Shown piece by piece: positions 1,992-7,826 of a stretch of 64,000 nt of DNA. This stretch comes from a virus. Its lineage: Duplodnaviria; Caudoviricetes. Made by a program: the position numbers and the translations under genes. Under the pieces are notes generated by a model. That model was given only the letters and a program-made list of their open reading frames with translations. It had not been told where the DNA came from and made no database searches. Each line of letters opens with the position of its first letter. Position 1 is the first letter of the stretch. The stretch lies in IMG/VR virus record IMGVR_UViG_3300049182_000044, positions 64,001-128,000 of that record. One strand, given 5' to 3'.

Positions 1992-2516
1992 ATGGCACAA
2001 TTTCTCGGTAATTGCGAGTTCAGGAAAATCGACCTTTCGGAACGCCTCGCAATACCTCCTTTCCCAAACAAGTTTCCCACGCATCATCGCCTGTCGAAGG
2101 CCGTGCGTCGCATTAAGCTCGGTGCGCGCAAGAACCCGAGTGCAATCTACCGCACCACGTTCATGGTATTTGTCGCCGACGATAAGTTTGGAATATGTAA
2201 ATTGACGATTGTGCATGGCCGTCATGCGCGTCGCAATTCTCGTAACGGCAAGATGCACCTGGACTTCCATACCGACTATCCAAAACATCAAGTGATCGTG
2301 TTCGCCATGACTGACACTGGTTCGTACAGCACGGAAAAGCTGAATGAACTGTTCGACGAAACACATGCTCATCTGTGCCAAGGTCTCGACAACATCTCGT
2401 TTGGCTGGGTGCCGCCCTCTGGAACGAATCGAGGCAATGTACGCCAGACGTTCAACGTGTTTCCCCAGGAGCCGGGCATGACACCGATCAATACCGTAGA
2501 AGAAAGCAAAACATGA
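1992..2516 (+). CDS. Hypothetical protein
   Basis: 174-aa ORF, ATGA overlap with ugd. Confidence 0.65.
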   Translation: MAQFLGNCEFRKIDLSERLAIPPFPNKFPTHHRLSKAVRRIKLGARKNPSAIYRTTFMVFVADDKFGICKLTIVHGRHARRNSRNGKMHLDFHTDYPKHQVIVFAMTDTGSYSTEKLNELFDETHAHLCQGLDNISFGWVPPSGTNRGNVRQTFNVFPQEPGMTPINTVEESKT

Positions 2517-3904
2517 ATGTAACAGTTATTGGGACAGGCTATGTCGGACTTGTGACCGGCACCTGTCTGGCTGAATTGGGGAACAATGTCGTATGTCTCG
2601 ACGTTGACGCAGACAAGATCGCCATGCTCAAGAACGGTGAATGCCCGATCTACGAGCCGGGTCTGAAAGAAATGATCCAGCGTAACGTCGCGGCTCGCCG
2701 TTTGCAGTTCACTACAGATGTGGCCTTCTCCGTAGATCATGGACTGTTCCAGTTCATTGCAGTAGGTACGCCTCCTGCCACTGACGGTTCGGCTGATTTG
2801 CAGTACGTCTATGCAGCGGCTCGTAACATCGCCGTTCATGCGCGTGGCATGAAGATCATCGTCAATAAGTCTACGGTGCCTGTCGGCACGGGTGACGAGG
2901 TCGAGCGAATCATTATAAGTGCTCAACGCGAAGAGCGTATGGGTACTAACTGGATCGTCGTTTCCAATCCAGAGTTCCTGAAAGAGGGAGCTGCGATTGA
3001 AGACTTCATGCGGCCTGATCGTATCGTGATCGGCATGAATCAGATGGCGGATGCCTACATCAACACCGCAACTCGTGAGGCGTTGACTCGTCTCTATGCT
3101 CCGTTGAATCGCAACCACCAACGTACCATCTGGATGGGTCGTCGTGCAGCAGAACTCACCAAGTATGCTGCGAACGCTATGCTTGCGACACGCATTTCGT
3201 TTATGAACGAACTGGCTTGCCTTGCGGAGAAAGTGCATGTTGATATTGACGATGTACGGCGTGGCATCGGCAGTGACACTCGCATCGGTTACGACTTCCT
3301 GTATGCGGGTCTCGGCTACGGTGGCTCGTGCTTTCCCAAGGACGTTCGTGCCCTGAGCGAAACCGGAATGCAGAACGACTGCCAGATGCACATCCTCGAT
3401 TCCGTCCACTACGTCAATCAGAACCAGCGCATCAACATGCTGAAGAAGATCGACGAGCGCTTTAATCACGACCTTGGCGGCAAGACGATTGCAGTATGGG
3501 GCTTGTCATTCAAGCCAAATACCGACGATATGCGCGAGGCACCTTCGCTCGACATTATCAAGCGTCTGATCCATACCGGAGTTACCGTCAACATCTATGA
3601 CCCGGTTGCTCAACACGTTGCGTACAAAGAGCTTGAAGCGCTTTGTGAAGAAGGTGGTATGGACATCGGCATGGTGAACCGCTGTGTCAGCATGCTCGAC
3701 GCCGTTGCGGGTGCAGACGCCCTTCTCATTTGCACTGAATGGAAGGAGTTTAAGACACCTTCTTTCCACGAAATGGCTCGTCTGATGAAACACAAGATCA
3801 TTTTCGACGGTCGCAATCTCTACAATCTCGAACAGATGGAAGAGCATGGATTCGAGTACTACGGTGTAGGTCGTTCAGCTGGAGCTTATCGTGCTAAGAA
3901 CTGA
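2513..3904 (+). CDS. ugd: UDP-glucose 6-dehydrogenase
   Basis: VIGTGYVG Rossmann motif, FIAVGTP, NKSTVPVG, SNPEFLKEG, catalytic GYGGSCFPKD, FKPNTDDMRE, DGRN; true start MNVTVIG at the ATGA overlap. Confidence 0.97.
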   Translation: MNVTVIGTGYVGLVTGTCLAELGNNVVCLDVDADKIAMLKNGECPIYEPGLKEMIQRNVAARRLQFTTDVAFSVDHGLFQFIAVGTPPATDGSADLQYVYAAARNIAVHARGMKIIVNKSTVPVGTGDEVERIIISAQREERMGTNWIVVSNPEFLKEGAAIEDFMRPDRIVIGMNQMADAYINTATREALTRLYAPLNRNHQRTIWMGRRAAELTKYAANAMLATRISFMNELACLAEKVHVDIDDVRRGIGSDTRIGYDFLYAGLGYGGSCFPKDVRALSETGMQNDCQMHILDSVHYVNQNQRINMLKKIDERFNHDLGGKTIAVWGLSFKPNTDDMREAPSLDIIKRLIHTGVTVNIYDPVAQHVAYKELEALCEEGGMDIGMVNRCVSMLDAVAGADALLICTEWKEFKTPSFHEMARLMKHKIIFDGRNLYNLEQMEEHGFEYYGVGRSAGAYRAKN

Positions 3905-4100: not shown

Positions 4101-4421
4101 ATGAACAAGATAACGCATAAGGCTTTGCAATTCGGCAACTGCGACATTACGACCATAGTTCAGGAGAAGGAAACTCCTCTGTGCTATGTTCGTGCACCGT
4201 TGCGAGTAGTGCACGGTGACCCTAAGGCTTTGACTTCCGAGTTTCGAGGCCTCGAAGCTGGTGAAGCTGCGATCCTCGTAAAGGTGTGGCTGAATTTTCA
4301 TGGCTGGTGGTGCCGTGTGCGACGTACTAATGGACAGTTCGTCGATGTACGCGACACTGATTTGAACTGGATTCCAAAAGAAGAGTACGAAAATGAACAG
4401 AAGAAAACTAGCGGCGTATAG
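4101..4421 (+). CDS. Hypothetical protein
   Basis: GAGG RBS, collinear with neighbours. Confidence 0.6.
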   Translation: MNKITHKALQFGNCDITTIVQEKETPLCYVRAPLRVVHGDPKALTSEFRGLEAGEAAILVKVWLNFHGWWCRVRRTNGQFVDVRDTDLNWIPKEEYENEQKKTSGV

Positions 4422-4692
4422 CATGCTTGTACTTATTGCGCTTGTTATGGCGTCGTGTGTTGCCTCATTCGCCTATGCGAAAGGCGGTGGTGCGCGAGGT
4501 GGAAGTTTCCGTGGGAGCTTCCGCAATTCTCCGAAACCTCCTGCAGCCCCATCGAACGCTCGTCAAGCCTCAGACTCTAGCTCTACTACGTCCTCAAGTA
4601 ACAGCTCGTGGTGGCCAAACTTTTTCTTTTTCGGTAACAGCCGGCGTACCGAGTGTACCGAGGACATTAAACGTGAAGGAGGTTGTCGATGA
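4393..4692 (+). CDS. Small secreted or membrane protein with Gly/Arg-rich and Ser-rich segments
   Basis: N-terminal basic plus hydrophobic signal (MNRRKLAAYSMLVLIALVMASCVASFAYA) followed by KGGGARGGSFRGSFR. Confidence 0.6.
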   Translation: MNRRKLAAYSMLVLIALVMASCVASFAYAKGGGARGGSFRGSFRNSPKPPAAPSNARQASDSSSTTSSSNSSWWPNFFFFGNSRRTECTEDIKREGGCR

Positions 4693-4841
4693 AACGGAAC
4701 AAGGGTTTTACGCTGGTCGAGTTGATGATTGTGATCGCAATTATCTTCATTCTCGCGACAGCTGTTAAGAACATGTTCTTTGCAGAGGGCGGATCAGTGC
4801 AGGACCTCCTGCGCGGTGAAACGTGTATCAATTGCAATTGA
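4689..4841 (+). CDS. 50-aa prepilin-like peptide (type IV pilin N-terminal cleavage/methylation motif)
   Basis: Absent from the ORF track. Translated by hand: MKRNKG|FTLVELMIVIAIIFILATAVKNMFFAEGGSVQDLLRGETCINCN*. ATGA overlap and GAAGGAGG upstream. Confidence 0.85.
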   Translation: MKRNKGFTLVELMIVIAIIFILATAVKNMFFAEGGSVQDLLRGETCINCN

Positions 4842-4894
4842 TAATTCAGAAGGGTCATGTGCTTTCGAGTGCATGACCCTTTTGTCGTCTAATA

Positions 4895-4901
4895 CTGTAA
4901 A
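4895..4901 (+). promoter_or_regulatory. CTGTAAA motif, candidate phage promoter element (representative copy)
   Basis: Same heptamer at or near gene junctions at 11307, 14597, 15711, 24387, 25879, 27513, 28002, 32751, 37662, 40259, 47613. Confidence 0.55.
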
Positions 4902-4926
4902 AAGACGGATATAGATTGAGGTCATC

Positions 4927-6585
4927 ATGTCCAAAAGCAACACCGTAATCATCCGGGATCGAGTGTATATTCCCCTCAGACTGGTCAATCCGTCCGAAGT
5001 AAAGGAGAACTACACAAAGCTCATGTACGACGATAAAGCGTGCATGAAATGCCCTAATTTTCAGGACCGCCACAGCTATCTGTGCGATACATGCGAGGCC
5101 TACAAAGGTAAGGTCAAGCTGTATAACGTCAAGGAAAAGAACGGCATCAACTACATCGGCATACCAGTCGGCGACAAGAAGAATTTCGAGCGTAAGACCG
5201 GCCTGCTCAAGGAAGAGGTCAAGTTCAAAGACCTTCGCAGACGCCAGCCGTTCACCGTTAAGTTCAAGATGATTATCGACCCACGGGATTATCAACAGCC
5301 CGTGATTGACGACTTCCTGAAAAAGAAGTACGGCCTTATCAAAGCGCCTCCGCGCACTGGTAAGACCTTCATGATGCTCTACATTGCCTACAAGTTGGGT
5401 CATCGCGCAGTGCTTTTGGCTAACCAGCACGAGTTCCTTACTCAGTTCTTGGATCACATCCATGGTAACGAGAAGGAAGGCATTCCGAAGTGTACCAATC
5501 TCCCCGAAGTCGAAAAGAAGCTGAAGAGGAAGCTGTACGGATTCCCTAAGACTGACGAAGACTTCAAGAACTTTCAGTTCTTCGTGATGACGTATCAGCA
5601 GTTCATTAGTGAGAAGAACGGCAAGAACCGTTTCAAGAAGATCGCTAAGAACGTGGGTACGTTGATGATCGACGAAGTGCACAAAGCCAACTCAGATGAG
5701 TTTGCAAAGGTCATTGCTAAGTTCCCAACGCTGTATAAGTTTGGTGTTACGGGTACCGTTGAGCGTAAGGACAAGCGCCACTTCATCATCAAGAACTTGA
5801 TCGGCCCGGTCGTTGCACAGACTGATCGTGAGGCGTTGACACCCACTGTCATACTGCACAAGACAGAGTTTAGCACGACACGTAAGTACACGGGCAAGCG
5901 TGCTTGGGTGTTTGCGATGCAGGCACTCGCTAAGGACAAGAAGCGCAATCGAATGATCGTTGACTGGGTGATGAAGGACTTGGCTAATGGCCACAACATC
6001 GTCATTCCGGTAACGTTCAAGAAACATGCGCTTGATCTTCAAGCTGCGATCAACAAAGAGTGGCAAGAACGTAAGAACACTAACAAGAAGATTTGCGCGG
6101 TGTTCACAGGTGGTGGCGGCAAGAAGAACAAGGAAGCGCGTAAGGACATTCTCTCCGAAGTCAAGGCCAACAAGATTCGAGTGACAGTGGGTATTCGTTC
6201 GATGCTGCAATTGGGCTTGAACGTGCCTGCATGGTCTGCGATCTATACTGCTATGCCGATCTCGAACGAGCCGAATTATAGGCAAGAGACGAAGCGTATT
6301 TGCACACCGATGGAGAACAAGCGTGAGCCAATCGTGCGCCTGTTCGTTGATATGGATCTCGGCCAGTCCATCGGCTGTGCGCGTAACTGCATCCGTCACA
6401 TGCAGGGTTTCGGTTACAGCTTCAAAAAGAATGAGAAGCAGTCGGCCTTGATGTACGAAGTCCTGGGCAATCAGCACCGTGACGAAGGTGAATACGGTGC
6501 CAATCCAGATGATGCTATGTTCAAGCCAACTAAATCGTTGTTTGATAAAGAGCAGCCGAAGCGCATTCCAGTAAAACGACTATGA
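4927..6585 (+). CDS. Superfamily 2 DNA/RNA helicase (UvsW/XPB-like)
   Basis: Q motif PRDYQ, Walker A APPRTGKT, DEVH motif II, GVTGT motif III, C-terminal helicase domain. Confidence 0.85.
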   Translation: MSKSNTVIIRDRVYIPLRLVNPSEVKENYTKLMYDDKACMKCPNFQDRHSYLCDTCEAYKGKVKLYNVKEKNGINYIGIPVGDKKNFERKTGLLKEEVKFKDLRRRQPFTVKFKMIIDPRDYQQPVIDDFLKKKYGLIKAPPRTGKTFMMLYIAYKLGHRAVLLANQHEFLTQFLDHIHGNEKEGIPKCTNLPEVEKKLKRKLYGFPKTDEDFKNFQFFVMTYQQFISEKNGKNRFKKIAKNVGTLMIDEVHKANSDEFAKVIAKFPTLYKFGVTGTVERKDKRHFIIKNLIGPVVAQTDREALTPTVILHKTEFSTTRKYTGKRAWVFAMQALAKDKKRNRMIVDWVMKDLANGHNIVIPVTFKKHALDLQAAINKEWQERKNTNKKICAVFTGGGGKKNKEARKDILSEVKANKIRVTVGIRSMLQLGLNVPAWSAIYTAMPISNEPNYRQETKRICTPMENKREPIVRLFVDMDLGQSIGCARNCIRHMQGFGYSFKKNEKQSALMYEVLGNQHRDEGEYGANPDDAMFKPTKSLFDKEQPKRIPVKRL

Positions 6586-7193: not shown

Positions 7194-7826
7194 TTGAACA
7201 TGAGTGACGAGGGCGAAATCCTAATCAAGGGCTTCTCCAAGGAACGTGCAAAGTTGATGTTGGCGCGTGGCGTTCCAGGACAAGACATGATTCCAAAGAA
7301 GGCAAAGATCGACGTTACAGAAGCGTTGGTCAAGATGGACCCAAACATCCCAAGAGTCTTGCCGAAAGGTATTTCGACAGGCAAGCAACTTCGTGCATTG
7401 ACGCACATTCTGGAAAATCCACTACGCGGTTCATACACCGTGGGTATCGGCAGCTTCCCAAGTGATCTCCGTGCGAAGTACATGGCACAGACAATCATGG
7501 ACGCAGCAATAGACGCCTACAACACGCATCGACGCCCTGGACGTTCATTGCCTTTATGGCATCGAGTGTACGGTGGACTCACTGATAACTTGCGAGACAA
7601 GCCGATTCAGGAGATGCCCTGTATGCTTATCCTGAGCAATGTCAACGAGGGTTCCTCCAATTTCAAGCTCGAAAAGGTGCGTGATCTCCTTGAGAAATTT
7701 TCGGAGATTCCTCGAATCGTTATCACGGGTGGTGAACCTCCTTGTGATTTGTTCGCAAACAAGCTGTACTATCCAATGCGCTACGGTATCTATTTAGGGC
7801 CGTCGAACGCAATTCGGGAGGTATGA
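7194..7826 (+). CDS. Hypothetical protein, possibly a degenerate P-loop (DnaC/IstB-like) fold
   Basis: beta-loop-helix VGIGSFPSDLRAKYMAQ and hhhhSN strand pattern, but no canonical GKT; fold call is weak. Confidence 0.5.
   Translation: MNMSDEGEILIKGFSKERAKLMLARGVPGQDMIPKKAKIDVTEALVKMDPNIPRVLPKGISTGKQLRALTHILENPLRGSYTVGIGSFPSDLRAKYMAQTIMDAAIDAYNTHRRPGRSLPLWHRVYGGLTDNLRDKPIQEMPCMLILSNVNEGSSNFKLEKVRDLLEKFSEIPRIVITGGEPPCDLFANKLYYPMRYGIYLGPSNAIREV

Follow-up and report, generated by a model that had tools for sequence, protein, structure and literature searches.

A predicted headless type IV pilin mimic encoded by an uncultured jumbo phage

Introduction

What could a phage do with a gene of 50 codons that begins as a type IV prepilin begins and stops shortly after the hydrophobic helix? 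Such a gene (P0001) lies in the window analysed here, a stretch of 64,000 nucleotides that comprises bases 64001–128000 of a 281,566-bp IMG/VR virus record rated as complete by CheckV. The question has two parts, the first of which concerns the identity of the gene and of its product, and the second the effect that a pilin without a head might have on the infected cell.

Pilin-like proteins of phage origin have been described by Sztanko et al. (Cell Rep 2026; PMC12952977), according to whom FimU mimics encoded by prophages enter the pilus and block tip-binding phages. That paper sorts the PilA-like proteins of virulent phages into four groups, one of which is truncated to about 60 residues and is carried by six Pseudomonas phages. 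For the truncated proteins it offers, as a proposal only, either incorporation into the pilus without the phage-binding site or inhibition of assembly (PMC12952977). We infer that the six-phage family is the family of PAK_P3.

Results

The mini-pilin gene occupies positions 4689–4841 of the forward strand (50 codons and a stop) and is supported by its translation, a match to the N_methyl profile, phage-typical codons and public gene calls. It runs from an ATG at 4689 to a final sense codon at 4836–4838 and a TGA at 4839–4841, directly followed by a second in-frame stop, TAA, at 4842–4844. The strong ribosome binding site reported in the initial annotation is present in the form of a perfect Shine-Dalgarno sequence, AAGGAGG (4676–4682, forward strand), separated from the start codon by 6 nt. 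The heptamer has 27 copies on the two strands of the 281-kb genome, 7 of which stand before ORFs of at least 40 aa. Codon usage was scored with frequencies trained on the phage's 103 ORFs of at least 300 aa. The log-likelihood of the mini-pilin gene is +17.2, against an average of 17.7 for in-frame 50-codon windows of the phage's long genes; this score falls at the 42nd percentile among such windows and exceeds those of all out-of-frame windows (3000 of 3000). The GC content of the gene is 46% against 51% for the genome, and by this measure the gene is no fresh capture.

An intrinsic terminator (4847–4890, forward strand), made up of a hairpin at 4847–4884 and a U-tract, closes the transcription unit ahead of a helicase gene at 4927. 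The hairpin was revealed by folding, with a minimum free energy of -26.6 kcal/mol for the terminator (z -7.0; equalled by 0 of 200 shuffles); a consensus terminator scan gave no call at this hairpin. A public protein collection contains the exact protein, with PF07963 attached to it and the gene called on two contigs. Since it combines a strong Shine-Dalgarno sequence, phage-typical codons, tandem stops and a terminator with these public calls, P0001 is judged from its sequence to be a real phage gene. An Rfam search over positions 4350–4950 and a PADLOC search returned no match.

The product of 50 aa consists of the leader MKRNKG, phenylalanine at +1 and glutamate at +5, a hydrophobic stretch, and a tail that ends in C-I-N-C-N. 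The textbook prepilin leader and cleavage site claimed for it at first sight are borne out by profile models: the Pfam model N_methyl (PF07963), aligned over profile positions 1–26, reaches 40.2 bits with a threshold of 21.2 (E 2e-10), and NCBIfam TIGR02532 scores 28.8 bits against a cut-off of 16.3. A six-frame N_methyl search of the whole 281,566-bp genome returned this single site at E 1e-10, which excludes a match by chance. The leader peptide (4689–4706, forward strand), supported by its sequence and by both profiles, has a net charge of +3 and glycine at -1. The predicted prepilin-peptidase cut falls between G6 and F7 and would leave a mature protein of 44 residues. In its profile scores, basic leader, G-1, F+1, E+5 and hydrophobic run, the protein displays the sequence features of a prepilin class III signal.

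The Kyte-Doolittle hydropathy reaches its maximum, 2.72, over residues 8–26. AlphaFold, supplied with an alignment of 22 short phage pilins, predicts a helix over residues 9–31 with pLDDT above 90 and leaves the 19-residue tail as coil with pLDDT of 56–61. Helix prediction and hydropathy together delimit the alpha1-N helix (mature residues 7–31; 4707–4781, forward strand), and the remaining 19 residues (4782–4838, forward strand) form a predicted periplasmic tail that is modelled without a globular head. The early description of some 20 residues after the helix and a CxxC end is thus accurate. The globular alpha-beta head of type IVa pilins and T2SS pseudopilins is absent from a protein with 19 residues after the helix, and the two cysteines of the tail stand only 2 residues apart, as against the C-terminal disulfide loop usual in pilin heads.

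The assignment to a particular class of pilins is narrower in what it permits. All pilin equivalog models score far under their cut-offs (GspG 19.9 against 88.85, GspH 26.4 against 80, PilA_Myxo 29.7 against 400). The motif of Flp pilins is a glycine followed by x4-Glu-Tyr, with a Tad-type leader. In P0001 the glutamate at +5 is followed by leucine, not by the tyrosine of the Flp/Tad (type IVc) proteins, and the leader with F-T-L-x-E is of the type IVa/T2SS kind. Of the solved structures, Geobacter PilA-N chains match P0001 best, and they do so over residues 2–30 only (E 2e-4). The HMM scores, the hydropathy and the fold prediction make a well-supported case for reading P0001 as a headless type IV pilin or pseudopilin mimic.

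Relatives of this protein are confined to its N-terminus. A word-indexed protein search returned P0001 itself as the sole match, and an exhaustive HMMER search of 1.84 billion representative proteins gave 25 matches, all of them through the N-terminus and none extending homology to the tail. Scans of IMG/VR and of metagenome contigs likewise matched only residues 1–26 or 1–32, again with no homologue of the tail. The families phrog_10597, phrog_13280 and phrog_11263 match residues 1–25, 3–32 and 5–25 only, at E 1e-7 to 4e-6, whereas the matches of true members of these families span the full length, with E no higher than 1e-44. On sequence grounds, P0001 is of the same kind as the truncated-PilA families of phages by its architecture, and not by homology of the tail. 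The best match to the tail found anywhere, locus L009, has a family-wise p of 0.068 and is not significant.

A set of longer viral and metagenomic mini-pilins, of 74–93 aa (P0015, L021:2501-2728, L029:2498-2734, L043:2498-2776, L088:2498-2719 and L232), carries after the helix a Cys-bracketed module, C-x2-G-x2-F ... G-x3-C, that resembles a disulfide-bonded head reduced to the minimum. P0001 ends four residues after its first cysteine and lacks this module. Its candidacy as a loop-deleted member of this group was rejected, the alignments of the tails being no better than those of shuffles (per-pair p 0.035 to 0.86, uncorrected).

The initial annotation also described the gene as coupled to its upstream neighbour by an ATGA overlap. 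The overlap itself stands: the stop codon of an upstream ORF of 99 aa (P0002; 4393–4692, forward strand) lies at 4690–4692 and overlaps the ATG of the mini-pilin gene. The upstream ORF is doubtful as a gene, however, and because its codon signal is weak (+8.6 / +0.5), the public gene caller made no call at it and a search for homologues found none, coupling between the two is unproven. It is also unnecessary, as the mini-pilin gene has a Shine-Dalgarno sequence of its own. The putative product of P0002 begins with a signal-peptide or lipobox-like sequence (an A-x-A site or a cysteine at residue 22), continues with a Gly/Ser/Pro-rich middle of low complexity and a W-W-P-N-F-F-F-F patch, and has a C-x9-C end. 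A complex prediction for P0001 residues 7–50 with P0002 residues 23–99, made for the case that P0002 supplies a head in trans as in the split pilins PilA-N and PilA-C of Geobacter, gave a score of 0.00, which weighs neither for nor against such a pair. A reading of the pair as spanins or other lysis proteins was rejected, the tail being much too short for an i-spanin and lysis genes being absent nearby.

Two other genes of the neighbourhood deserve mention. A UDP-glucose 6-dehydrogenase (UGDH) gene with all three Pfam domains (2513–3904, forward strand) belongs to the same tightly packed operon as the mini-pilin gene, and may be an auxiliary gene for envelope remodelling. Beyond the operon, an ORF of 210 aa (7194–7826, forward strand) matches the PHROG DNA polymerase family phrog_20094 at E 1e-54 and has no Pfam match; in PaBG, a short gene annotated as 'DNA polymerase' has the same placement behind the helicase.

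Among public sequencing runs, the stretch with the mini-pilin gene occurs in one, a DNA soil metagenome that may be its source; no RNA run is listed as containing it. The helicase directly downstream shows 38–43% identity to helicases of jumbo phages, namely those of PaBG, NCTB and the Erwinia Y3 group. In PaBG and NCTB, the closest relatives in culture, the helicase is not preceded by any pilin-like ORF, and the lineage can thus dispense with the gene. The 281-kb genome contains no prepilin peptidase A24 (PF01478), T2SSE ATPase (PF00437), T2SSF platform protein (PF00482) or secretin (PF00263), and any processing of P0001 therefore depends on the host. The nearest bacterial relatives of the UGDH gene belong to Burkholderiales (Duganella, Massilia, Janthinobacterium; 55–59% identity), a weak hint that the host is possibly a member of this order. 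We infer the presence of pili on the host only from these relatives of the UGDH gene. Five Burkholderiales genomes contain 8–23 prepilin-type ORFs each, all in open frames of 127–460 aa.

The initial annotation suggested an N_methyl search among related phages, and short pilin-like ORFs do recur among phages, matching P0001 through the N-terminus only. A tblastn search of 50,697 phage records found pilin-motif ORFs in 154 of them, nearly all from phages of Synechococcus, Pseudomonas, Vibrio, Aeromonas, Acinetobacter and Delftia. The translated products measure 59 aa in PAK_P3 (gp139), 44 aa in PhiW-14 (gp120), 67 aa in ValKK3 (gp231), 107 aa in Acibel004 (gp97) and 66 aa in one IMG/VR contig. 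PHROGs contains short pilin-like families of 59, 67 and 72 positions, and one named 'pilin'. In a motif-based sample of IMG/VR, whose 77 loci were not de-replicated and therefore provide rough figures, the pilin-motif ORF is at most 70 aa long at 11 loci and at most 110 aa at 25. The latter proportion (25/77) compares with 9/71 in general metagenome contigs (p 0.006) and with 0/77 in the five Burkholderiales genomes. The genes that flank the short IMG/VR mini-pilins match phage families, and several of these mini-pilins adjoin replication genes, as P0001 does. Short forms are, by this rough census, typical of phages.

Several recurrent settings of such ORFs were noted in passing. Short pilin-like ORFs are present in other jumbo-phage contigs of 343 kb (L011:2501-2740), 358 kb (L082:2498-2803) and 360 kb (L039:2495-2602); two of the three have a common tail, C ... 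C-x-D-G-K-[IL]-Y-T, and one ORF is only 36 aa long. In another arrangement (L016:1657-2662, L070:1639-2677, L061:2498-3913), a mini-pilin of 49–60 aa adjoins a phrog_200 'lipoprotein' gene or stands one gene away from it, and the pair may constitute a two-gene envelope module. In AT-rich viral contigs (L002:4081-6201, L010 and L013), a mini-pilin of 66–71 aa, whose tail is charged, closely follows a ResIII/DEAD helicase that is distantly related (24% identity) to the helicase following P0001; in L002, Mre11/Rad50-like genes come after the mini-pilin.

Discussion

P0001 probably interferes with host pili, judging by the kind of protein it appears to be. A more specific account, in which it competes through the alpha1-N helix as a dominant-negative subunit and excludes pilus-dependent competitors, has in our estimate an even chance of being correct. 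Under this account, P0001 would lodge in the inner membrane and expose its tail to the periplasm, and the host prepilin peptidase (PilD/GspO) would cut it after Gly6 and N-methylate Phe7. Through the alpha1-N helix that it shares with host pilins, the mature protein of 44 residues would then compete with these for access to peptidase, platform and growing fibre. As we propose, it would act as a dominant-negative subunit because it does not have the head that supplies the outer contacts between subunits. Functional pili, and possibly the T2SS pseudopilus as well, would fall in number, and the infected cell would be shielded from pilus-dependent competitors. Headlessness is in itself no proof of poisoning, because naturally short pilins can polymerise, among them Caulobacter PilA and the Geobacter PilA-N that P0001 matched, and the orphan tail means that there is no comparative sign of selection on this part of the protein.

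A much wider reading takes headless phage pilins to be a widespread, unrecognised class of substrate-mimic poisons or decoys that disable or reprogramme all type IV filament machines of the host. The PilD-matured peptide of 44 residues would in that case hit pili, T2SS and competence alike, either through terminated fibres or through a fake membrane pilin pool shown to sensors of the PilS and PleC types. In P0001, the periplasmic C-x-x-C might also catch host pilins while their disulfides form. We consider this whole reading doubtful.

The competitive account has close precedents. The options of fibre entry and PilD titration raised in the initial annotation are not original, since the same two are found in Sztanko et al. 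2026 (PMC12952977). P0001 adds to the known truncated pilins of phages, whose function stands only as a proposal. The truncated PilA-like proteins of the PAK_P3 gp139 / KPP10 family (phrog_10597) are, like P0001, headless proteins with a full leader and alpha1-N helix, 44–67 aa in length. They are carried by virulent myoviruses in clusters of nucleotide-metabolism or replication genes, and the same two mechanisms have been proposed for them. P0001 differs from these families in its tail, which is unrelated, shorter and ends in C-x-x-C, and in its occurrence in an uncultured 281-kb jumbo phage. PAK_P3 gp139 is transcribed in infection and rises from the early to the late stage with a log2 fold change of 3.6 (PMC4933390 supplement).

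P-FimU of F10-like Pseudomonas prophages provides the example of a phage-made pilin that uses host machinery to exclude competitors (PMC12952977), as is proposed here for P0001. P-FimU, a minor pilin of full size (213 codons for JBD68 gp10), has both a head and extra loops; a prophage expresses it, and the pilus continues to work. P0001, by contrast, is headless and encoded by an apparently lytic jumbo phage. PfsE of the filamentous phage Pf4, a very small inner-membrane protein, suppresses type IV pili and brings about superinfection exclusion while leaving the ATPase untouched; it binds PilC and is not reported to be prepilin-type (PMC8764522), in contrast to P0001, a pilin mimic by sequence. 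Aqs1 of DMS3 and related PilB inhibitors also remove functional type IV pili and block competitors (PMC13060843), but they bind the PilB ATPase as soluble proteins of the cytoplasm and have neither the membrane segment nor the pilin likeness of P0001. The earlier emphasis on a route different from the known inhibitors of the assembly ATPase was overstated, as both the binding of PfsE to PilC (PMC8764522) and the replacement of FimU by P-FimU (PMC12952977) already bypass the ATPase.

The competitive account has to be weighed against several others. It is unlikely that the pilin-like N-terminus does no more than hold P0001 in the membrane for a role unrelated to type IV filaments, such as a block to DNA entry at the inner membrane like that of T4 Imm, or an action together with the envelope proteins of the operon. 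Small single-pass membrane proteins with exclusion roles are common in phages, and this counts in favour of such a role. The gene also stands at the end of an operon with UDP-glucose dehydrogenase and a possibly exported protein, and the C-x-x-C of the tail could have a chemistry of its own. A plain anchor, however, needs no Gly-1, no Phe+1 and no charged Glu+5 inside the helix, and here the full motif is found, at 40 bits, in a gene of phage-like composition with lysis genes absent nearby.

It is quite unlikely that mature P0001 is built into host pili that go on working, and there thins out or changes the surface to which other phages bind; the logic of P-FimU would then be applied to the shaft. 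Short pilins that polymerise belong to Tad systems or depend on a partner, Geobacter PilA-N working with a separate PilA-C head, and this speaks against such an outcome for P0001, which has a signal of the type IVa/T2SS kind rather than Flp and for which no partner was identified. Type IVa filaments, moreover, rely on head-to-head contacts. On the other side, filaments can accommodate pilins of 45 to about 60 aa: for Geobacter PilA-N ('geopilin domain 1', PDB 7TGG, 9EGP) and for Caulobacter PilA, the mature protein is of this size and is essentially an alpha1 helix. These two are structural subunits whose genes adjoin those of their machinery, a context that P0001 does not have, and Caulobacter PilA, of 45 aa when mature, is a Tad/Flp-class pilin with a signal different from that of P0001 (10.1101/766329). 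P-FimU is incorporated with twitching intact and tip-binding phages blocked, and its authors offer this option for truncated PilA (PMC12952977).

A similarly low probability attaches to an effect on signalling, whereby the alpha1-N helix of P0001 would imitate a full pool of pilin in the inner membrane for PilS-type kinases and PleC-type systems. The outcome, to be regarded with the same reserve, would be that pilin transcription is turned off or that c-di-GMP and surface-sensing programmes are shifted. Signalling through PleC/PleD in Caulobacter requires no more of mature PilA than its first 17 residues, and the synthetic 17-residue CIP peptide lowers both attachment and susceptibility to PhiCbK (10.1101/766329), so that the headless membrane segment of a pilin is bioactive alone and reduces susceptibility to a pilus phage. 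The levels of PilA in the inner membrane feed back on PilS-PilR, according to PMC6058289, which cites Kilmury and Burrows 2016. CIP, however, is a synthesised piece of a Tad pilin of the host and acts via PleC/PleD, whereas P0001 is a phage gene, and effects exerted through transcription come slowly for a lytic infection.

It is very unlikely that P0001 is a gene in decay, left from the 5' end of a pilin or pseudopilin gene captured from a host and still expressed, but functionless. The orphan tail, the lack of the gene in PaBG and NCTB and its presence in a single phage genotype are compatible with decay. Set against them are the perfect Shine-Dalgarno sequence, the tandem stops, the dedicated terminator and the phage-typical codons; downstream there is no leftover sequence of a pilin head, and independent phage lineages keep similarly short forms. 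A chance open frame, as its shortness might suggest, is hardly credible for a sequence with a genome-wide E of 1e-10, a codon signal above that of 3000 out of 3000 out-of-frame controls, a Shine-Dalgarno sequence and a terminator.

On its own, P0001 opens no new question. It represents an extreme case among the truncated pilins of phages, with 44 residues in the mature protein, an orphan C-x-x-C tail and a jumbo phage as its carrier. Many phages that are unrelated to one another and infect piliated hosts carry short pilin-like ORFs, for which the usual annotation is hypothetical. Pilin mimicry, if true, would add a route of substrate mimicry to those of the PilB, PilC and PilZ binders and of FimU replacement.
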